Source of the DNA: Candidatus Heimdallarchaeota archaeon
GTDB lineage: Archaea; Asgardarchaeota; Wukongarchaeia; Wukongarchaeales; JBHIFL01
Reading direction: 5' to 3'
DNA: 15,414 bases
Assembly: GCA_046761065.1 (NCBI GenBank)
Contig: JBHIFL010000086.1
Location: 1 to 15,414, forward strand
Part shown: positions 281-13,186 of the stretch, piece by piece
Position numbering within the stretch: the stretch's first letter is position 1
How the letters are laid out: every line of letters starts with the position of its first letter
The notes under the pieces: model-generated
Told to the model about the DNA's origin: nothing
The model's input: the letters and a program-made list of their open reading frames with translations, nothing else
The model's database searches: none
Program-made: the position numbers and the translations under genes

Positions 281-586
281 ATGATGTTGACAAAACAGGA
301 GATCCTCAAAAAACTTGAAGAAAACGGAAAGCATCTTAAAGAATATCATGTGAACCTACTAGGTCTATTTGGCTCCTATATTAAGGATGAACAACAAAGT
401 ACGAGTGACATAGATATACTAGTAGAATTTGAAGACGGAATGAAAACTTTTGACCGTTATATGGACCTAAAATTTTTTCTTGAAGAATTACTTGAATGCA
501 AAGTTGATTTGGTCCTTTTTAATGCTTTATTACCTAAAATCAAACCATTTATGTTAAGAGAAGTCGAATATGTCAAGGGACTATGA
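281..586 (+). CDS. Minimal nucleotidyltransferase (MNT) antitoxin of a HEPN-MNT module
   Basis: 101 aa with the LFGSY...SDIDILVEF nucleotidyltransferase signature and a C-terminal KVDLV motif. It overlaps the start of a DUF86/HEPN reading frame. Confidence 0.92.
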   Translation: MMLTKQEILKKLEENGKHLKEYHVNLLGLFGSYIKDEQQSTSDIDILVEFEDGMKTFDRYMDLKFFLEELLECKVDLVLFNALLPKIKPFMLREVEYVKGL

Positions 587-1186: not shown

Positions 1187-4135
1187 TTGGTGAGCACAAT
1201 CTTGGCAGATCTTCCCCCAAACCCACATGCTATGGATCTCGACACAATTATTACCACCCTCGATACAGATCCAAAGAATGGGTTGACTCAACAGGAAGCT
1301 GAACAGCGACTCCGCGATTATGGAGAAAATATGATTCCAGAAGTGAAGGGAAACTTCTGGCAGATCTATTTAGCGCCCCTCTTCAATTATTTGATCACTG
1401 TATATCTTATCATGTCTTTTGTGCTACTTATTCTGGCATTTCAAGAACCATCTATCTGGCCCCAAGTCGCACTTTGGCTTTCAATCGTCATCGCAAATTT
1501 TATAATCGCGATTATTCAACAACGCCGGGCACAAAAGAAATTCGAAGCTTTGAAGCGGTTAACTGAGCCGACTTCCGTTATTATTCGGGATGGCGTCTCT
1601 AGAGAAGCTCCTGCAGAGCAACTGGTCCCTGGAGATGTTATTGAACTAGATCCCGGGGATTGGATCCCTGCCGATGCAAGAATCCTCACGTGTGGCGGTT
1701 TCACCGTCGATGAAGCTTCGCTGACCGGAGAAAGCGTTCCAGTTGGAAAGACCACCACTCCTCAGTTGGATTCCGACACTCCTCTTTCAGACCGAACAAA
1801 TATGGTTTACCGAGGAACCTTTGTCCAGACTGGGACAGCTAAGACCCTTGTAATCCGAACGGGTAGTCAAACTGAACTTGGGCAACTTTCCACCGAGCTA
1901 GCCCAACTTCAAACCGGTGAGATCCCCCTGACTAAAAAAGTGAATGTGCTAGGAAAATGGCTGACATTTGCGATAGTAATCTTTCTAGCGGTTCAGCTTA
2001 TAGTCAAAGGATGGCTCCTCTCTCAAGGAGGGTTTAAATTATTCGAAAGAAGCTTTATAATCCGAGAAATTGCTAATAGCATTGTTGCTAGCATGTCTGT
2101 GATGCCGATAAACATTCCTTTACTCACTACCATCACTTTGCTTACAGGAGTCTTAGCTATGGCAACTCACAAGGTGTTGATCCGCGATCTCTCGGCAATA
2201 GAAAGCCTTGGTCGCATCTCTGTTCTTTGCGCTGACAAAACAGGCACGATCACTCGGAACCAGATGACTGTGAAGCGGGTTTGGGATGGAAATCAATTAT
2301 ATTCAGTAACAGGTTTGGGGTATGGCCCCTCTGGTATCATTTACCCAGTTGAATCGCAAGCAACTGCAAAAACACCTGAGAAACATGTCCCTGCAATGTT
2401 AGGACCCCCTCTCCCTGGATCTTCTCTTGAACGTCTCCTCATTGCGGGTTTTTTAAACAATGATGCTGAACTGGTAGTTGAGGAGTTCTTCGAGCCAACT
2501 GGTGAAATTACTTGGCGTGCGATCGGTGATCCCACCGAAGCGGCATTACTGGCGTTATTTAATAAATCTGGCTTAGATAAAGCCGTAGTTGAAGCCGAAT
2601 ACCAATTAGCTCAAGAATATGCGTTCGATTCGGAACTTAAACGGATGACTAAAGTCTTCAGGTGTCAGGGTAATCCCAGATTGATAGCCTATAGTAAAGG
2701 AGCTACAGAAGTTATCCTCGAGCGTTGCACTACTGTGATGGGACAAAGCAACAAGCAGATACAAAAGTTATCACCTGAGAAAAAAGCGGAAATTCAGACA
2801 TTCGCTGATGAATTCGCTGCTTTAGGCTTTAGAATTCTTTCTTTGGCATATAAGTCACTGCCAGATACACCCATGCCAGACGAGAAGCAACGGTCTACTA
2901 TTGAGAAGGATATGACCTACTTAGGGTTTGTTTGTCTGGTCGATCCCCCGCGTAGTGGGATCCGCGAATCCGTACGCGAGTGTGCAAGTGCTGGGATTGA
3001 TACGATCATGATTACAGGTGATCATGCTCTTACAGCTGAAACAATTGCACGGGAAGTCAATATCCTTAAGGAAGGACAATCTGTCCATGAAGGGGTCGAA
3101 GTCGCCTCTTTAGACAAAGAAGAGTTTATCAAGACAGCAGTATATGCTCGAGTTATACCTCAGCATAAGCAGACAATTGTTGAGCGCTATCAGGACATGG
3201 ATCGCGTTGTTGCGATGACCGGCGATGGAGTTAATGATGCTTTGGCCGTTTCCATGGCGGATGCCGGAATTGCGATGGGGATAACGGGAACTGATGTAAC
3301 TAAGGAAGCTGCCGATCTCATTATTACTGATGATAGCTTCAATTCAATTGTGACAGGGATTCGTGAAGGCCGCAGTCTCTTCCTAAAAATCCGGATGATG
3401 ATTTGGTTCTATCTGTGCGTTAATTTGGCTGAATTTTTAGTATATTTTGGGGCATCACTTATCCCCAATTTTGTGTTAATTACAAGCTGGCAACGAGTTT
3501 ATATCTTTTCACTAATTCATTCTTTCCCCGCATTTGGCCTTATTTGGGATCGTATAGGGCGTGAAATTATGCAACGGAAACCTCTCGACACCGAGGGAAT
3601 CATGAATCGGAAGTTAGCCAAAGCAATGCTCCTTGGAGCATTTGTCTTAGCCGGTGTCATTTCCCTTGTGTATTACATGACCTTTAATGGGATCATTCCA
3701 CTAAATGCAGACAACACTATTAAGGGAGGCTTTGTTCCACTTGCTTTTCAATTTCGATTTCTACCTTATACTGATCCAATAAGTCCCCTAGGATGGTTCC
3801 AAGCGAAGGCTCGAACCATGTTTCTTACCACTGTGTTTCTTTCGGAGGCTATTTTGGTTCTTAGCATCCGTCGAATGGATAAAAGCTTCTTTGCATCACT
3901 GAAATCTGCTTCTTGGTTCGTATATCTAACGGTCTTCTTCTGGCCAATTATGCATGGAGTCGTGATGTATAAACCACAAACCCAATACTTGTTGATTAAA
4001 TATATTTGGATCAATTTGGAGATTATTCGTCTGTCATATTCTGATTGGATGATTTGCGTGGGAATGAGTCTGATTCCAATCTTAGTGCTTGAGTTGTATA
4101 AATGGCATATAAGAAGGAAAGGAGAAGTCTTCTAA
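1187..4135 (+). CDS. P-type ATPase (P2-like scaffold, non-canonical membrane binding site), paralogue 1
   Basis: LTGES actuator motif, phosphorylation motif DKTGT (Asp codon at 2234), GDPTE, FDSELKRM, KGATE, DPPR, MITGD, MTGDGVNDA hinge and about 10 hydrophobic segments. The true start may be GTG 1190. Confidence 0.96.
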   Translation: MVSTILADLPPNPHAMDLDTIITTLDTDPKNGLTQQEAEQRLRDYGENMIPEVKGNFWQIYLAPLFNYLITVYLIMSFVLLILAFQEPSIWPQVALWLSIVIANFIIAIIQQRRAQKKFEALKRLTEPTSVIIRDGVSREAPAEQLVPGDVIELDPGDWIPADARILTCGGFTVDEASLTGESVPVGKTTTPQLDSDTPLSDRTNMVYRGTFVQTGTAKTLVIRTGSQTELGQLSTELAQLQTGEIPLTKKVNVLGKWLTFAIVIFLAVQLIVKGWLLSQGGFKLFERSFIIREIANSIVASMSVMPINIPLLTTITLLTGVLAMATHKVLIRDLSAIESLGRISVLCADKTGTITRNQMTVKRVWDGNQLYSVTGLGYGPSGIIYPVESQATAKTPEKHVPAMLGPPLPGSSLERLLIAGFLNNDAELVVEEFFEPTGEITWRAIGDPTEAALLALFNKSGLDKAVVEAEYQLAQEYAFDSELKRMTKVFRCQGNPRLIAYSKGATEVILERCTTVMGQSNKQIQKLSPEKKAEIQTFADEFAALGFRILSLAYKSLPDTPMPDEKQRSTIEKDMTYLGFVCLVDPPRSGIRESVRECASAGIDTIMITGDHALTAETIAREVNILKEGQSVHEGVEVASLDKEEFIKTAVYARVIPQHKQTIVERYQDMDRVVAMTGDGVNDALAVSMADAGIAMGITGTDVTKEAADLIITDDSFNSIVTGIREGRSLFLKIRMMIWFYLCVNLAEFLVYFGASLIPNFVLITSWQRVYIFSLIHSFPAFGLIWDRIGREIMQRKPLDTEGIMNRKLAKAMLLGAFVLAGVISLVYYMTFNGIIPLNADNTIKGGFVPLAFQFRFLPYTDPISPLGWFQAKARTMFLTTVFLSEAILVLSIRRMDKSFFASLKSASWFVYLTVFFWPIMHGVVMYKPQTQYLLIKYIWINLEIIRLSYSDWMICVGMSLIPILVLELYKWHIRRKGEVF

Positions 4136-4140
4136 TTCGC

Positions 4141-4190
4141 TTCAAAACCGTTCGTACTCGCTTTTCCATTATTTTCTATTTTTAAAAATT
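4141..4190 (+). terminator. T-rich tract after ATPase 1, possible archaeal-type terminator
   Basis: cttttccattattttctattttt lies just after the stop codon. No strong hairpin. Confidence 0.3.
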
Positions 4191-4440
4191 AAAATTACAA
4201 TGAATCGACTAAATCGTCTTAAATTGGTTCCCCTTCTTTAACTCCATTGAATTGTATTAAGATCATTTCTTCTGCTTGGGAGTTTATGAATGCTTGAACT
4301 CCCTGTTTTGAATTTCTAAAGTGTTTTATTGTATAATAGCCTTTTACCTCTAAATGATAAGATATCCATATAAGATATTGAAACATACGATTTCCACCGA
4401 ATCATTTATCATTAAATTAAAAGCAATTGAATCGGAATAT

Positions 4441-4455
4441 AATATTGTCAATATT
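4441..4455. promoter_or_regulatory. Perfect 7-1-7 palindrome AATATTG-T-CAATATT, candidate operator upstream of ATPase 2
   Basis: Inverted repeat about 120 nt before the 4574 start. The context is AT-rich, so chance is not excluded. Confidence 0.3.
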
Positions 4456-4573
4456 CATTGGGTGCTAAACTACTGCGACTCAAGATAGGGTAACCCGTAG
4501 GCACGTGTTCGAGCGTCAATCTGTCGTTAAACGGAATTGAGCAAGTAAATAATTAGCCGATAACATAATTTGG

Positions 4574-7495
4574 GTGAACAAAATCTGGCAAGAACTCAAT
4601 GGATATGATATGGGAGTAGAGGAGTTAGTTAAAACGCTCGAAACGGATCCGAAGAATGGATTGAGCCAAGCCGAAGCTATGCGACGTCTTCGTGATTACG
4701 GCCCGAATAAAATCCCTGAAGTACGGGGGAGCTTCTGGCAAGTTTATCTGGCTCCATTGTTCAATGTCTTGATCACGACTTATCTAATTATGTCGTTAAT
4801 TTTAGTCTTTTTGGCTATTCAAGATCCTACTGGAGGAATCTGGCCGCAAGCAATCATGTGGCTGGCAATAGTTATCGCAAATTTTCTAATTGCTATCGTT
4901 CAACAAAGAAGGGCACAAAAGAAATTCGAAGCGTTAAGGCGATTAACGCAACCTACAACGCGAGTCATTCGAGAAGGCCAAACACTTGAGCTACCCGCTG
5001 AGCAATTAGTTCCTGGTGACATTATTGAGTTGGAGCAAGGGAATCGAATCCCTGCCGATGCAAGAATCCTCACATTTCACGAATGTATCGTCAATGAGGC
5101 CTCTCTAACTGGAGAATCAGTCCCAATTTTAAAAAATAATTCTCCCGCATTAGATCCAAGCACTCCTCTGAGCGAACGAATGAACATGATCCATCGAGGG
5201 ACATTTATCCAAATTGGATTTATGAAAGCACTTGTTGTTCGAACAGGACCCCATACAGAATTAGGGCAAATCTCATCTGAGCTTGGTCAACTTAGCACAG
5301 GTGATATACCTCTTCAGAATAAAGTCAATGCTCTAGGTAAATGGCTAGTAATGGCAGTAGTAATCTTTCTAGCCGTCCAACTCATCGTGAAAGGATTGTT
5401 GTTTTCACAAAATGATTTTTTATTATTAGAAAAAAGTTTCGTAATCCAAGAAATCTTCACCAGCATTGTTGCGGCCATGTCGGTCATGCCAATAAATATC
5501 CCACTTTTATGCACCATCACTCTGCTCACCGGTGCCTTAGCGATGGCCACTCATCGAGTAGTCATCCGAAATCTTTCAGCCATTGAAAGCCTTGGCCGGA
5601 TAAGTGTTCTTTGTTCCGATAAGACCGGAACAATAACCTGGAGTCAAATGACCGTCAAACGGATCTATGACGCTGGTACGGGCCGATTACATGCGGTGAC
5701 AGGACTGGGTTATGGACCATCCGGGATCATTTTCCCAGTAGCAAGGAAAGTAACAGAGAAAGTCCCTGAAGAACATGTTCCTGAGATTTTGACACCTCCA
5801 TTCCCAGGATCATCTTTCGAATTACTGCTCATTTGCGGGTTCTTGAATAATGACGCGAGACTAATGGTCGATGAGGTTTTTGAGGCCGAAGGCGCAACGT
5901 CTTGGCGTGCGATCGGCGATCCCACCGAAGCGGCGCTACTGGCATTGTTTAATAAGTCCAGGCTCAACAAGATTGACATCCGACGAAAGTATGTAGTAGT
6001 TCGAGAATATCCCTTTGATTCACAATTGAAGCGGATGAGCAAGGTATTTATCATCAAAGATAGAGATCCGGAAACTCCAGGATTGATTACATTTAGTAAA
6101 GGAGCCACAGAAGTTATCCTTGAACGATGTACTATGGTAGGAGGCTTGAAAAACAAAAGAGAATTAACCTCGAAAGGAAAAACCGAAATTCAAGCTATTG
6201 CGGATGGATTTGCTAAACTAGGGTTTCGAATTCTTTCTCTAGCATACAAACCAATGACTGAACTGCCCCCTCAAGAAGCAGATGAACGGGAATGGATCGA
6301 GGAGGGGATGACCTATCTGGGGTTTGTATGCCTTTTAGACCCCCCTCGCGGAGGAATCCAAGAGTCCGTGCATGAGTGTGCAAGTGCGGGAATTGAGGCG
6401 ATTATGATCACTGGTGACTCGCCGATTACAGCTGGGACCATTGCAAAAGAAGTTGACATTCTAAAGGAAGGACAAGCTGTTCATGAGGGAGAGGAGGTCG
6501 CTGATTTAGACAATGAAGAGTTTAATAATACAAAAGTATTTGCACGGGTCTCCCCCCAACATAAACAAATCATTGTGGAAAGGTATCAACGTGTAAATCG
6601 AGTTGTAGCTATGACTGGAGACGGAGTAAATGATGCTTTGGCCGTTTCTATGGCGGACGCCGGGATTGCGATGGGGATAACGGGAACCGACGTAACTAAG
6701 CAGGCTGCCGATCTCATTATTACCGATGATAGTTTCAATTCAATTGTAAAGGGAATTCGTGAAGGACGGGGGCTTTTCGTCAAAATTAGGATGATGATTT
6801 GGTTCTATTTATGCATTAACTTAGCCGAAGCGCTTGTCTACTTTGGAGCGTCGCTAATTCCTAATTTTATCCTATTAGAAACTTGGCAACGTGTTTATAT
6901 TTTCAGTTTAATTCACTCTTTCCCCGCATTCGCGTTGATATTTGATTATATGGGACGGGAGATCATGGAAAGGAAACCGCTCGACACCGAAGGGATCTTA
7001 AACCGGAAGTTAACCAAAGCACTACTTTTCACAGCGTTCACTTTGGCCGGTGTTATTTCTCTCGTTTATTTTATAGCCTATAGAGGTATTATTCCGATTA
7101 CCCCATACAAGGAAGGAAGTTTCCTACCTTTGGAACTATGGACCAAACAAGATTGGGCCCAAGCAAAAGCGCGAACCATGTTTCTCACCATAGTATTTAT
7201 TTCTGAAGCCACCGTGGTTTTAAGTATCCGCCGGATGGATCAGAGTATCTTCACCTCCCTGAAATCTGTTACGTGGTTTGGTTATTTGATGGTCTTTTTT
7301 GTTCCTATCTTACATAGTATCGCCATGTACTACCCCACACTCCAATATTTCATGATTGATCTTATTGGTTTCAATGTGGAAATTCTTCGGCTAACATTGG
7401 TTGATTGGGTAATTTGCTTGGGCGGGGCGTTCACTCCGATCATGATTCTTGAACTGTACAAAAGGCATATCCGGCGTAAAGGAGAATTTTTCTAA
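4574..7495 (+). CDS. P-type ATPase (P2-like scaffold, non-canonical membrane binding site), paralogue 2
   Basis: Same motif set as paralogue 1 (LTGES, DKTGT at 5618, GDPTE, KGATE, DPPR, TGD, TGDGVNDA) and collinear with it end to end, both ending HIRRKGE(V/F)F. Confidence 0.96.
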   Translation: MNKIWQELNGYDMGVEELVKTLETDPKNGLSQAEAMRRLRDYGPNKIPEVRGSFWQVYLAPLFNVLITTYLIMSLILVFLAIQDPTGGIWPQAIMWLAIVIANFLIAIVQQRRAQKKFEALRRLTQPTTRVIREGQTLELPAEQLVPGDIIELEQGNRIPADARILTFHECIVNEASLTGESVPILKNNSPALDPSTPLSERMNMIHRGTFIQIGFMKALVVRTGPHTELGQISSELGQLSTGDIPLQNKVNALGKWLVMAVVIFLAVQLIVKGLLFSQNDFLLLEKSFVIQEIFTSIVAAMSVMPINIPLLCTITLLTGALAMATHRVVIRNLSAIESLGRISVLCSDKTGTITWSQMTVKRIYDAGTGRLHAVTGLGYGPSGIIFPVARKVTEKVPEEHVPEILTPPFPGSSFELLLICGFLNNDARLMVDEVFEAEGATSWRAIGDPTEAALLALFNKSRLNKIDIRRKYVVVREYPFDSQLKRMSKVFIIKDRDPETPGLITFSKGATEVILERCTMVGGLKNKRELTSKGKTEIQAIADGFAKLGFRILSLAYKPMTELPPQEADEREWIEEGMTYLGFVCLLDPPRGGIQESVHECASAGIEAIMITGDSPITAGTIAKEVDILKEGQAVHEGEEVADLDNEEFNNTKVFARVSPQHKQIIVERYQRVNRVVAMTGDGVNDALAVSMADAGIAMGITGTDVTKQAADLIITDDSFNSIVKGIREGRGLFVKIRMMIWFYLCINLAEALVYFGASLIPNFILLETWQRVYIFSLIHSFPAFALIFDYMGREIMERKPLDTEGILNRKLTKALLFTAFTLAGVISLVYFIAYRGIIPITPYKEGSFLPLELWTKQDWAQAKARTMFLTIVFISEATVVLSIRRMDQSIFTSLKSVTWFGYLMVFFVPILHSIAMYYPTLQYFMIDLIGFNVEILRLTLVDWVICLGGAFTPIMILELYKRHIRRKGEFF

Positions 7496-7556: not shown

Positions 7557-8645
7557 TTAATTTTTCTCATGCGTGAAAGCGTACGCAATATTGGCTCCCG
7601 TCTGAACCGCCTGTAGACTACCTGAGGTGCCGAGAGACTGTCCACAGGGGTAAGCCCAAGTGTAACCCTCCACAGGCATCTTTATCGTTTCGATGACATC
7701 GCCATATAGATCGTAGATCTCTGCAAGAACCTCACCTTGCTTTATTAGTTCACCAGGTTTTTTGAAATAGCGTATTAGGCCTCCTCGATTACTATGGAGG
7801 ATTCCATAAAACTTGTTAATACCGGGTACAATGGGGATCTCCTTTAAAGGCTCAGGTTTTCCATCGATCATATTGAAGGCCTTCATGATGTTGAGCACAC
7901 CTCTGATGCCAACGCTAGTAGAGGGGTCGGAGATCCAATGGCCATCGATTAGCTCTTCAAGGATGACGGGGATCCCTTTTCTCGCAGCTAGATTCGTGAG
8001 GGTAGGAGGAGCGTTCTCCTCTATTGGGTTATTATCAACAATAGTAGTGACCCCAAAAGCCTTAGCCATCTTGATCAACATTTCTTGTGTCTGAGGGTTT
8101 CCGACATTGATCCATTGGTAAATGAGTGAGTCAGGCCTTGTGTTACAGTGGATATTAACAATCATATCCGCTTTGCTCCACGCTTCAGTCCACAGGAGAT
8201 AGGTAAGCCGCTCAGTTGTGTTCCCCCTAGGGTTATCTGCCCTTTCACGACCGACATCTAAGTTATCAATCCAAGAAAGGTACTGATGGTGCATGAAGGC
8301 TAGTGGATTTCCTACAGGGATTCCAATGACAGCACCCCTAAGGCTTCTCGGGTTCAGTTGCTTTCGCATGACCCTCTGGATGACCTCAATCCCTTGGATT
8401 TCTGTCCCATGCTGGGTTGACATGAGAAGGAGCGTCGGGCCTTCCATGTCCCCGTTTATTACGAGGGTATGGATGTCTATACACATGGTATTGACAAGTT
8501 CAATACCTTTAATAACTCCTTTCTTCAATTCTCCTCTCCTTGCGACGATATTTCCTATTTCAAGCATATCAGGCATGTAAATTACCTTCATTCCGTTTGA
8601 TATTCTTTGTATCCCATCGAATATCAAGAAGATCATTTGGATCAA
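7557..8645 (-). CDS. Succinylglutamate desuccinylase/aspartoacylase-family (peptidase M14-like) zinc hydrolase
   Basis: GPTLLLMSTQHGTEIQG (HxxE zinc ligands), G.VIGIPVGNPLAF, IVNIHC (third ligand), P.ILEEL, and a C-terminal hybrid barrel (GGLIRYFKKPGELIKQGEVLAEIYDLYG). The real start is probably downstream (ATG 8591, 8576 or 8567). Confidence 0.88.
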   Translation of the reverse strand: MIQMIFLIFDGIQRISNGMKVIYMPDMLEIGNIVARRGELKKGVIKGIELVNTMCIDIHTLVINGDMEGPTLLLMSTQHGTEIQGIEVIQRVMRKQLNPRSLRGAVIGIPVGNPLAFMHHQYLSWIDNLDVGRERADNPRGNTTERLTYLLWTEAWSKADMIVNIHCNTRPDSLIYQWINVGNPQTQEMLIKMAKAFGVTTIVDNNPIEENAPPTLTNLAARKGIPVILEELIDGHWISDPSTSVGIRGVLNIMKAFNMIDGKPEPLKEIPIVPGINKFYGILHSNRGGLIRYFKKPGELIKQGEVLAEIYDLYGDVIETIKMPVEGYTWAYPCGQSLGTSGSLQAVQTGANIAYAFTHEKN

Positions 8646-10691: not shown

Positions 10692-11729
10692 TTAAACTCT
10701 CACCGTACCATGTTGCAATATATCAATTAGATCTGAATAGATACCAAATGCAGTGGTTTTCAAAGAAGGGTTTTGCTCAGCTATGACGAGTTCTCCGAAT
10801 AAATCGAGCGAAAAGACGGCGGCATTAGAAGTACTTCGACAGCCATAGAGGAAATCAAATGGGTGAACTGCCTCTAGGTTTACCCGATAGGTCTTTGAGT
10901 TGAAGTCTGCAATGGAAACTTGCCTGATGATTATGTTCTGATCGTAGAGACAAGTGTTTCGCGCATTTTCGAAGGTCTCTTGAGTTAAGGGTTGCTTTTC
11001 GACATCAGAGAGCTTAATCTTCATCTCACTAAGTGTATTAACTAGAATAACAAGTTTTGCGGCTGCGTCTATTCCCTCAAGATCCAACGATGGATCCTCT
11101 TCTGCAGTTCCTAGCATTTTAGCATTTTCAATGCCTTGTTCTAAGTTCAACTTCTGATGGAGGTAATCTAGCACTACATTGACAGTGGAATTCAGAATCC
11201 CTCGTATTCTCTTGACTCGGACTTTTGGCAAGGCATTCCTGAATATGGAGAAGATTGGAGTTCCATCTAACACTGTGCTTTCGTATCTAAGCCGGGCACC
11301 AGATCGGGCGGCGATTACTTGTAGGCGATCCATGGCGAGAACTAGAGGAGCCTTGTTACATGTGATGACATCCTTACCTTGCTCAAATGCCGTTTTTATG
11401 TAAGTTATAGCCGGCTCTCCTGTATCATAATTGGCAATTATCGCTTCAACGAGAACATCATAGTCTCCCTCGCGAAGCCAGGAGGTAATCTCGTAGGTAG
11501 CATCTTTTATTGTTTTTAACTTGGTATTTTGCAATGCAACATCTACTTGGGGCTTTACAGAAGATGGTGGTGCCTTATTAAGTTCTAAAAGACCTAATGA
11601 GCGACTTCCTATTGCTGAAAAAGTGAATTTTGTTCCTTTAGGGTCAACCTCAGCGAGCAGTTCTGTTACCGCTTTCCCGACATTTCCATATCCTATGAGT
11701 GCGATCCTCTTCCTAGTCAAGTACTTCAC
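10692..11729 (-). CDS. hom: Homoserine dehydrogenase (short form, no ACT domain)
   Basis: IALIGYGNVG Rossmann motif, G.DVITCNKAPL, YESTVLDGTPI, IRGILNSTVN, AE.DPSLDLEGIDAAAKLVIL, TAFGIYSDL. The start is set at GTG 11729 (alternative TTG 11720) rather than 11819 because the Rossmann motif is normally near the N-terminus. Confidence 0.92.
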   Translation of the reverse strand: MKYLTRKRIALIGYGNVGKAVTELLAEVDPKGTKFTFSAIGSRSLGLLELNKAPPSSVKPQVDVALQNTKLKTIKDATYEITSWLREGDYDVLVEAIIANYDTGEPAITYIKTAFEQGKDVITCNKAPLVLAMDRLQVIAARSGARLRYESTVLDGTPIFSIFRNALPKVRVKRIRGILNSTVNVVLDYLHQKLNLEQGIENAKMLGTAEEDPSLDLEGIDAAAKLVILVNTLSEMKIKLSDVEKQPLTQETFENARNTCLYDQNIIIRQVSIADFNSKTYRVNLEAVHPFDFLYGCRSTSNAAVFSLDLFGELVIAEQNPSLKTTAFGIYSDLIDILQHGTVRV

Positions 11730-12535
11730 AGTCCTTAACTTCCTTGTATGAAGCGGGATAGTTATTAAAGTACCGGTAATCTGTGCAAGATTATTAATTG
11801 CTTTGCTTAACAATCGCAAACTTGGGATCTGGAGTTTTACTCTCGGCCACTATTACGATGGTTACGTGTTTTACCTTACCTTTTGAAAAGGCTTTACAAT
11901 GGTGTTTGAAGGCATTTTACGACATATCAGGCAAGTTTTAAGCCCGATCACTATGTGAATTGTTGCAAAACACAGAGATCTTAGTGTTCCTTTATTTTAG
12001 GAGCATTTCTTGGCGGCATTAAGTTATTAGTAATATTTCTCCTATTCGGGTTAATAAAATGTCCAAAGACCCCTTAAATCCTTTTATTCGCAGAACCATT
12101 TCAGGTCTGATCAGCTGTGGGTGAAGAGGATTAAGGTGAAATCCTTAATATATAGGCATTCAAAAAATGTATAATTTTCACCTATTATCTCTACTATGAC
12201 CTTTTTGATGCAGATACACGCCCCACAATACTGATGATGGGGAGGTGCTCTATTGTTCTATGAAAATAGAATTTTGCCTAAATTTGTAGGACTATGATTC
12301 GTATGTCCTAGGCGTATTTAAGTTATCTAGTCATCTTTACCAGAACCATATTGTTTTGCGCCAATCTCTATTGTTGCGAAAGTAGAGACATTCTAATGAT
12401 GAAGATTTCATTTCTGTTGGTTAAGATCATCATACATCTTTCTGGTGTTGGAGATTTGGCTGATGTATAAGATTAAACTTCTTGATAGCTCGTTTTATGA
12501 AAAAGCTTGAATACATCGATGAGGAGGCTATATGA

Positions 12536-13186
12536 TTGGGTCAAATTGCGTATAAGTTGAGAGATTCGCTGTACTTAAATCTAACCAACCGATATACAAA
12601 CGATTGTGCGTTCTGTTTCCGAACCTTCGGAGACGAACTACTTAGTTACAATCTTAAATTGGATCGGGAACCGACTGTTGATGAGATCTTGAGAGCAATC
12701 AGCTTATGAACGAACAAGATGCCTTCTTCAGAGATCGTCTTCTGTGGATACGGCGAACCTCTTATTCGGCTTGATACCATCCTCGCCGCTACTCGGGAAA
12801 TTAAACAGAGATATCCCAAGGTTAAAGTTCGCTTAGATACAAATGGACAGGGTAGCCTTTAGCATCCATATCGTAATGTTGCAAGAGAATTGAAACGGAG
12901 CGGAATTGACCGGATATCGATCTCTCTTAATACGCCGGATAGTGAAATTTATATTTGGATCTGTAAACCCTCTTACGGCACAATTGCCTACAGTAGCGTA
13001 ATCCAATTCATCAAGGATTGTAAATCCGTAAACTTTGAGACCGAATTTACAATCCTCGCGATTCCTCAGCTCGATTTAGCTGCCTGCAAAAAAGTTGCAC
13101 AAGAATTGAGGGTTCCTCTCAGAATAAGACCATATAGAAGGTCCATAACCATTTTAGCAAAACGATTAGGTACTTTCACATCCTAA
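12536..13186 (+). pseudogene. TatD-family-associated radical SAM protein, inactivated
   Basis: GAGGAGG RBS at 12521-12527 then TTG 12536. One frame reads MGQIAYKLRDSLYLNLTNRYTNDCAFCFR...NLKLDREPT...AISL*...EIVFCGYGEPLIRLD...VRLDTNGQGSL*HPYRNV...IDRISISLN... Stops are TGA 12707-12709 and TAG 12860-12862. The first Cys of CxxxCxxC is Tyr (TAT 12593). Confidence 0.9.

Follow-up and report, generated by a model that had tools for sequence, protein, structure and literature searches.

Two tandem genes for P-type ATPases, lying between positions 1187 and 7495 of a contig from Candidatus Heimdallarchaeota archaeon (JBHIFL010000086.1, assembly GCA_046761065.1), encode pumps in which the ion-binding site known from calcium pumps appears to have been taken apart and rebuilt. 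The whole stretch of DNA that was analysed, 15,414 nucleotides long, is called the window below. It is the transport site that defines a subfamily of P-type ATPases, and there the two copies depart from the calcium pumps in the same way: the fourth transmembrane helix (TM4) reads PINIP in place of PEGLP, and the sixth (TM6) carries a His in place of an Asp. They belong to a clade, here called the PINIP/His family, that is nearly Asgard-wide and that is, almost certainly, a real group: discrete, catalytically intact and maintained by selection. We assign a probability of roughly 60% to the reading that these pumps move a small inorganic cation, though not Ca2+, by way of a single, rebuilt site.

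Pump genes and catalytic machinery

Both genes are open frames without stops and are separated by an A+T-rich spacer.

1187..4135, forward strand: P-type ATPase copy 1, 982 amino acids from the TTG at 1187
1232 (ATG start), forward strand: database gene call for copy 1, 967 amino acids
4136..4573, no strand: A+T-rich spacer between the pump genes, recognised from sequence and composition
4574..7495, forward strand: P-type ATPase copy 2, 973 amino acids from the GTG at 4574
4610 (ATG start), forward strand: database gene call for copy 2, 961 amino acids

The TTG start of copy 1 is plausible: the residues that are encoded ahead of 1232 are also present in conserved form in the orthologue at L001, a locus of a second genome, the tblastn match to which begins at 1190. 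The proteins of copy 1 and copy 2 are 67% identical by BLASTP and 69% in a codon alignment. A search of the window against Rfam, spacer included, gave zero matches at an expectation value (E) of 1 or below, with neither a riboswitch nor any other RNA detected.

Each copy has the full P2 domain set of Pfam, namely Cation_ATPase_N, E1-E2_ATPase, Cation_ATPase, Hydrolase and Cation_ATPase_C, and in each the motifs TGES, DKTGT, KGA, DPPR, TGD and GDGVND could be located. A first-pass annotation of the letters had listed motifs, with coordinates for the PINIP and TM6 signatures of both copies, and these are exact to the base. An AlphaFold2 model (mean predicted local distance difference test score 77.8) finds its best Foldseek matches in SPCA1, SERCA and the Na,K-ATPase, with a probability of 1.00 and TM-scores of 0.6-0.75. 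The machinery for ATP hydrolysis and phosphorylation is complete in both copies.

The exoplasmic loop between TM7 and TM8 (L7/8) has a median length of 42 residues in the PINIP/His family versus 17 in bacterial relatives, and the TM3-4 loop is likewise longer in the family. Within the window the L7/8 loop of copy 1 (3700-3800) exceeds that of copy 2 (7080-7140) by 12 residues. In Na,K-ATPases it is the L7/8 loop that binds the beta subunit.

The transport site

The segments that correspond to the cation ligands of SERCA, whose residue numbers are used for the equivalent positions, are as follows.

2105..2119, forward strand: copy 1 TM4, PINIP at the place of PEGLP; Ile for E309, Asn for G310
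3422..3433, forward strand: copy 1 TM5, NLAE; equivalents of N768 and E771 retained
3488..3535, forward strand: copy 1 TM6; His codon 3518-3520 for D800, Phe for N796
3839..3850, forward strand: copy 1 TM8, LSEA; Glu 3845-3847, the probable E908 equivalent
5489..5503, forward strand: copy 2 TM4, PINIP
6818..6829, forward strand: copy 2 TM5, NLAE
6884..6931, forward strand: copy 2 TM6; His codon 6914-6916
7199..7210, forward strand: copy 2 TM8, ISEA; Glu 7205-7207

The TM6 string WQRVYIFSLIHSFPAF begins at 3488 in copy 1 and at 6884 in copy 2. The initial hand alignment, in which PINIP took the place of PEGLP and His that of the TM6 Asp, is reproduced by three independent comparisons: HMMER against human SPCA1 aligns PINIP to PEGLP and the His to the Asp of ..MDGPPA.., HMMER of the C-terminal third against a plant PMCA and the Na,K-ATPase again aligns the His to the Asp, and so does a MAFFT alignment in which 77 family members were combined with 98 canonical relatives. 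The columns of this last alignment that separate the two sets, numbered by the 967-amino-acid form of copy 1, are:

TM4, position 293: Ile in 67 of 77 family members, Glu in 96 of 98 canonical relatives
TM4, position 294: Asn in 68 of 77 family members, Gly in 86 of 98 canonical relatives
TM6, position 759: Phe or Tyr in the family, Asn in 95 of 98 canonical relatives
TM6, position 763: His in 75 of 77 family members, Asp in 92 of 98 canonical relatives

The T799 equivalent is hydrophobic in the PINIP pumps, and five of the 77 members read PISIP in TM4. Retained in the family are the TM5 Asn (69/77) and the TM5 Glu (75/77); a TM8 Glu is found in 70 of the 77, at a column where the canonical set is divided between Gln (53) and Glu (37). 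A scan for columns that are conserved in the family and absent from the canonical set adds a TM1 Tyr where SERCA has its gate residue L65, as well as several discriminating positions outside the membrane. Besides this Tyr and an adjoining TM1 Pro, the strongly discriminating changes in the membrane are confined to TM4 and TM6. Kept in 67-75 of the 77 members, the TM4 and TM6 changes are far beyond chance.

Judged by these columns, calcium site II is erased, with Ile, Phe and His at the equivalents of E309, N796 and D800. The earlier claim that the site II side chains are lost and the site I residues kept thus holds across the family; an Arg at the start of TM6, which had been put forward as a further shared feature, turned out to be lineage-specific, occurring in 30 of the 77 members. 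In the AlphaFold2 model the helices break at residues 291-293 (TM4) and 763-764 (TM6), so that both are predicted to be still unwound at the positions canonical for cation pumps.

A calcium pump that still works on the retained site I residues, alongside an exchanger of the CaCA family, is the reading that the present annotation of these proteins would favour, and we consider it unlikely. The equivalents of TM5 Asn and Glu and of TM8 Glu in SERCA site I are indeed kept, the nearest solved or modelled relatives are Ca2+ pumps, and public sources annotate clade members as “Ca2+-transporting” or “cation-translocating” ATPases. A CaCA-family gene is moreover syntenic with the pumps in two genomes, that of the window and that of L001:

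8800..9819, forward strand: neighbouring CaCA-family (Na_Ca_ex) exchanger, listed as genomic context, 339 amino acids; Pfam PF01699 at 130.6 bits, alpha-repeats TTFPE and SEMPE

Against a calcium pump speak the replacement of D800 by His and the hydrophobic residue at T799. D800 of SERCA ligates both Ca2+ ions, and the known single-site Ca2+ pumps, PMCA, SPCA and LMCA1, keep site II, not site I. The link to the exchanger, furthermore, is limited to one lineage, and the cut-off for SERCA-type pumps is passed by another pump of the same genome. The assembly (4.4 Mb) is 91.5% complete with 8.2% contamination, a caveat for every statement made here about the same genome; it encodes two canonical P2 pumps and about six P1B pumps. 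The first canonical pump reads PEGLP and NLITDG and lies above the SERCA-type equivalog cut-off (731 vs 703 bits), the second reads PEALA and NLATDG. With a SERCA-type pump co-resident, the PINIP pair therefore does not stand in for a calcium pump in this organism, and the Ca2+ label of the public annotation is probably wrong.

Distribution and phylogeny

The best 120 relatives in a database clustered at 90% identity are 44-88% identical, and every named one is Asgard (Heimdall-, Hod-, Thor-, Odin- and Promethearchaeota); all but one carry both the TM4 and the TM6 signature. In an exhaustive phmmer search of 1.8 billion representatives, all matches from 1025 down to about 510 bits have a hydrophobic residue at the E309 position and no acid in TM6, and nearly always the TM4 Asn or Ser and the TM6 His as well. 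Below about 490 bits nearly all matches read PEGLP and N..(T/S)D, so that the boundary is sharp. The named distant members of the clade are Hel- and Promethearchaeota. With E <= 1e-170 as threshold, a hidden Markov model (HMM) of the family has matches in 355 of 400 genomes from the phylum of the window, among them 86 of 90 high-quality genomes and 78 of 85 genera; most genomes of the phylum give two matches, two candidates per genome having been scored.

The first-pass annotation had also proposed a motif search across genomes and had considered an Asgard host. A back-translated PINIPLLTT pattern, run over 185,579 species genomes, gives at least 80 loci; among those listed, 73 are true P-type ATPases and the remaining 7 of 80 are chance matches in unrelated DNA. 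The listed members are almost all labelled as Asgard and include the cultured Ca. Lokiarchaeum ossiferum and Ca. Atabeyarchaeum. The closest named relatives of the window's pumps are labelled Heimdallarchaeota, which bears out an Asgard host, and the clade is nearly Asgard-wide.

A few members stand under other labels. True members on two Nitrososphaeria-labelled contigs (L086 and L105, 54 and 94 kb) group with Atabeyarchaeia-type sequences, a placement that suggests transfer or binning, and a Bathyarchaeia-labelled contig of 2.5 kb (L135) also holds a true clade member. A metagenome-assembled genome labelled “Aerophobetes” (L097) has a Loki-like tandem pair and is probably misbinned.

Membership in the clade was defined by four features: P-hydrophobic-N/S-hydrophobic in TM4, a His at the Asp column of TM6, N..E kept in TM5, and placement in the tree. 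Trees were built with FastTree on 94 and 174 sequences and with IQ-TREE (LG+C20+F+G4, posterior mean site frequencies) on 41 sequences. The PINIP/His family is monophyletic in them, with a FastTree support of 97-100 and a support of 96 in the IQ-TREE approximate likelihood ratio test (SH-aLRT), and both window copies fall inside it (support 96-100) with every defining feature. When rooted on MgtA of E. coli, which falls outside the clade, the family is sister to the sampled canonical P2A-like pumps.

Tandem duplication and selection

In the trees copy 1 falls together with the upstream L001 gene and the sequences P0004 and P0005, and copy 2 with the downstream L001 gene, P0008, P0009 and P0010; P0008 is labelled Heimdallarchaeota. 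These two groups are sisters in a clade of nine sequences with a support of 100, and the window pair is therefore the product of a tandem duplication within a Heimdall-related lineage. The duplication is older than the split from the L001 genome, both copies having been retained since. Loki-type loci (L004, L005, L097, L098 and L150) have tandem pairs as well; their upstream and downstream genes fall into two deeply separated subclades and thus reflect an independent duplication of greater age. We considered an ancient, conserved unit of two genes as the origin of the pair and rejected it for the present lineage, in which the copies are each other's closest paralogues within the clade of nine.

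Selection on the copies was gauged from the ratio of nonsynonymous to synonymous distances (dN/dS):

Copy 1 against its L001 orthologue: dN/dS 0.09, dS about 0.6
Copy 2 against its L001 orthologue: dN/dS 0.11, dS about 0.6
Copy 1 against copy 2: dN/dS 0.09, dS about 2.4, saturated

Both copies are under strong purifying selection. The identity of third codon positions between copy 1 and copy 2 is 0.46, which together with the saturated dS agrees with the earlier remark that their silent sites have diverged, and the values between orthologues uphold selection rather than decay. Hardly any credence can thus be given to the notion that the pair are decaying or non-transporting relics of calcium pumps: the canonical ligands are gone, as such relics would have it, but the frames are open, the catalytic motifs intact and dN/dS as low as 0.09-0.11, and the replacement residues are themselves conserved across the whole phylum.

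Fixed differences between the two orthologue groups amount to only 31 positions, 7 of them in membrane helices. Two adjoin proposed ligands: the groups differ by Val/Thr next to the TM1 Tyr and by Phe/Ala next to the TM5 Glu. The proposed ligand set itself is identical in both copies, and because of this the difference between the copies probably lies in kinetics or regulation, not in cargo.

Cargo and mechanism

Transport of a small inorganic cation other than Ca2+ could proceed through a single buried polar site, formed by the TM5 Asn and Glu and the TM8 Glu of the old site I together with the TM4 Asn, the TM6 His and the TM1 Tyr. One small cation would bind there from the cytoplasm, phosphorylation of the Asp of DKTGT would come next, and the ion would be released to the outside at the transition from E1P to E2P. 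The TM6 His might carry the proton itself or provide an internal counter-charge while the pump returns, comparable to the Arg of P3A or the His of P1B-4 pumps. The most likely cargo is monovalent, H+ or Na+/K+, at somewhat less than even odds; what remains is shared, in falling order, among a hard divalent metal, Ca2+ and an organic or lipid substrate, with a small rest for other cargoes.

Export of a hard divalent metal (Mn2+, Fe2+, Mg2+ or Zn2+) from cells living in metal-rich anoxic sediment is a possible alternative, though one we hold to be tentative. A ligand set of His, carboxylates and amides, conserved in 69-75 of the 77 members, would suit a metal, and the best-scoring specific HMM is that of the PMR1 type, whose cargoes include Mn2+. 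A TM6 His is part of the transport site of P1B-4 pumps, and Palmgren's review (PMC10654040) notes it as an internal counter-ion. On the other hand, about six heavy-metal pumps of type P1B are already present in the genome, and scans of domains, neighbourhood and Rfam showed no metal-binding domain, metal regulator or riboswitch nearby. Being nearly restricted to one phylum, the clade also looks more like a trait of lineage than of environment, because it is mostly lacking from sediment archaea of other phyla.

A further step, which we regard as doubtful, would be to see in the clade a housekeeping pump that energises the Asgard cell membrane by exporting H+ or Na+ through its Glu-His site. Eukaryotic membranes are energised by P-type ATPases, by Pma1/AHA in fungi and plants and by the Na,K-ATPase in animals. 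If the proposal were true, plasma-membrane energisation by P-type ATPases would already exist in the archaeal relatives of eukaryotes, with a site unlike that of characterised pumps, and the members of each recurrent tandem pair would be isoforms with different tuning.

Several points weigh against our reading of a non-calcium cation at a rebuilt single site. The sequence does not yield the cargo and narrows the proposals only weakly; a set of one His, two Glu and two Asn could bind a proton or Na+, and Mn2+ or Fe2+ equally well. We infer both the equivalence of the TM8 Glu and the joining of the residues into one site from alignment, the former from MAFFT and an ungapped hand alignment; the HMMER alignments to solved structures end before TM8. 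The sister position of the clade to the canonical pumps is provisional because the root is a single long outgroup branch. Genomic context names no ion either: in a survey in which the open reading frames around 78 family loci were clustered by all-against-all BLAST and the recurrent clusters annotated, the sole neighbour shared across lineages is a second family copy, and the CaCA neighbour is confined to this lineage.

Neighbouring genes

The remaining genes of the window are:

281-586, forward strand: nucleotidyltransferase (NTP_transf_2/Polbeta), 101 amino acids, of the kind that pairs with HEPN proteins
7557-8645, reverse strand: AstE/AspA-family deacylase
10692-11819, reverse strand: homoserine dehydrogenase
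12536-13186, forward strand: radical-SAM gene, 74% identical to an intact L001 orthologue of 216 amino acids
13475-14380: TPR protein

The local order of the window (pump, pump, Na_Ca_ex exchanger, then homoserine dehydrogenase, radical SAM and TPR protein) is also that of L001, where the exchanger gene, 89% identical to that of the window, lies directly downstream of the pump pair. The AstE/AspA deacylase between pump 2 and the exchanger is found in the window and is absent from L001, and a 632-amino-acid gene with an SdrD_B domain that follows the exchanger in L001 (13184-15082) is absent from the window. The best NCBIfam model for the exchanger is a calcium/sodium antiporter, at 82 bits and under its cut-off; the syntenic gene is a weak, lineage-limited hint toward the handling of Na+ or Ca2+.

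The radical-SAM gene has two in-frame stops, TGA at 12707-12709 and TAG at 12860-12862, and the first Cys of its CxxxCxxC motif is replaced by Tyr; it is probably a pseudogene, if these are not assembly errors. No partner reading frame of 40 or more amino acids is evident beside the nucleotidyltransferase.

Apart from second family copies, the survey of 78 loci found lineage-specific synteny only, with subtilase, pantoate transferase, MFS, glutamine synthetase and similar genes. An ABC ATPase gene adjoins the pump in six loci of different lineages (L003, L086, L096, L105, L112 and L123), in L003 with an FtsX-type permease of 1015 amino acids alongside and in divergent orientation; the adjacency may be coincidental. 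Near the pump of L084 (3202-5202, reverse strand), and again in seven other loci mostly labelled Thor- or Promethearchaeota, lies a protein of about 650 amino acids that weakly matches the E3 UFM1-ligase domain of eukaryotes (PF09743, E 1.7e-7).

Novelty and significance

A literature search, incomplete in its coverage, found no paper that describes the PINIP/His clade, and no such clade appears in the passages found of a review of open questions on P-type ATPases (PMC10654040). A survey of the Asgard transportome lists only a “putative Ca2+ ATPase” with best hits to TC 3.A.3.2.21 at 39-47% identity (PMC7997004), and these hits are probably canonical pumps.

Most genomes of the Asgard phylum, the archaea nearest to eukaryotes, encode members of the clade, often at least two of them. 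The identity of its cargo would add a specificity class to a textbook family and would tell how Asgard cells handle ions or energise their membrane. The question is experimentally tractable because cultured members exist, Ca. Lokiarchaeum ossiferum having one. What the window adds is an independent duplication in the Heimdall lineage, the CaCA synteny, a co-resident SERCA-type pump and the list of discriminating positions.

Comparison with known P-type ATPases

The curated cut-offs of NCBIfam place the pair within the P-type ATPases at large, and outside each specific type modelled there. Scores are given in bits for copy 1/copy 2 (one value where a single score is reported), followed by the cut-off.

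Generic P-type model (TIGR01494): 262/259 vs 62.3, passed
PMR1 type (TIGR01522): 454/441 vs 798.3, failed, still the best specific model
P2D, ENA type (TIGR01523): 400/385 vs 645, failed, the second-best NCBIfam model
SERCA type (TIGR01116): 393/369 vs 703.4, failed
P2B, PMCA type (TIGR01517): 366/360 vs 507, failed
P2C, Na,K/H,K type (TIGR01106): 353/371 vs 946, failed; TM6 of the pair without an acid
P3A (TIGR01647): 340/327 vs 615.5, failed; His at the TM6 Asp column; no protein of the genome above this cut-off
P3B, MgtA type (TIGR01524): 311 vs 610.75, failed
P5 (TIGR01657): 256/267 vs 618, failed; TM4 reads MPINIP, not PP(E/A)LP
P1B (TIGR01525): 226/222 vs 346, failed; TM4 without Cys
P4 flippase (TIGR01652): 83.5 vs 431, failed; TGES present, not DGET

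Monophyletic, below every specific cut-off and matched by no describing paper that we found, the family is what the first-pass annotation had supposed, a distinct and apparently undescribed subfamily. Its suggestion that the pair might bear on the origin of eukaryotic P4 and P5 pumps found no support: the canonical pumps of the same genome score 81.5-98 bits on the P4 and 237-268 bits on the P5 model, equal to the PINIP pair, and there is therefore no special link to flippases or to P5.

This also makes it very improbable that the pumps move a lipid or another large organic substrate in the manner of P4 or P5 ATPases, with the TM4 Ile as a flippase-like gate. The PI(N/S)I of the family does resemble the PISL of P4 pumps, a few members have PISIP, and the exoplasmic L7/8 and TM3-4 loops exceed those of bacterial relatives in length. 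Against this stand P4 and P5 scores no higher than those of PEGLP pumps from the same genome, TGES in place of DGET, the absence of PP(E/A)LP and, near the 78 loci surveyed (neighbourhood only), the lack of a recurrent gene for a Cdc50-like partner. The family also keeps two buried Glu where P4 pumps carry hydrophobic residues or Lys. The conservation of these Glu, together with TGES where P4 pumps have DGET, favours an ionic cargo over a lipid.

The closest known systems are the P2A pumps (SPCA1/PMR1, LMCA1 and SERCA), which are the best matches in sequence (E about 1e-112) and in fold. The two groups share the ten-helix P2 architecture, the N- and C-terminal cation-ATPase domains, TGES, DKTGT and GDGVND, the TM5 Asn and Glu, and the unwinding of TM4 and TM6. 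The PINIP pumps differ in E309 to Ile, G310 to Asn, N796 to Phe or Tyr and D800 to His, in their longer L7/8 and TM3-4 loops, and in forming a separate clade.

The loss of the canonical acids may have parallels. The P2D (ENA-type) Na+/K+ efflux pumps of fungi offer a lead: they are not known to keep acids at the E309 and D800 positions (TM4 PSSL, TM6 ..SCFPA..) and yet move monovalent cations; unlike the PINIP pumps, they have no TM6 His. The P3A H+-ATPases AHA2 and Pma1 carry a hydrophobic residue at the E309 position (PIAMP). They resemble the PINIP pumps in this, in being single-site pumps and in having a protonatable residue at the TM6 kink, which is an Asp combined with a TM5 Arg in P3A pumps and a His combined with the TM5 and TM8 Glu in PINIP pumps. 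The P1B-4 pumps for Co, Zn or Fe share the TM6 His but differ in topology and have an SPC motif in TM4. To our knowledge, those single-site relatives of the calcium pumps that have been characterised all retain site II. The PINIP clade would be the reverse of these, with site II erased and site I rebuilt around a His.

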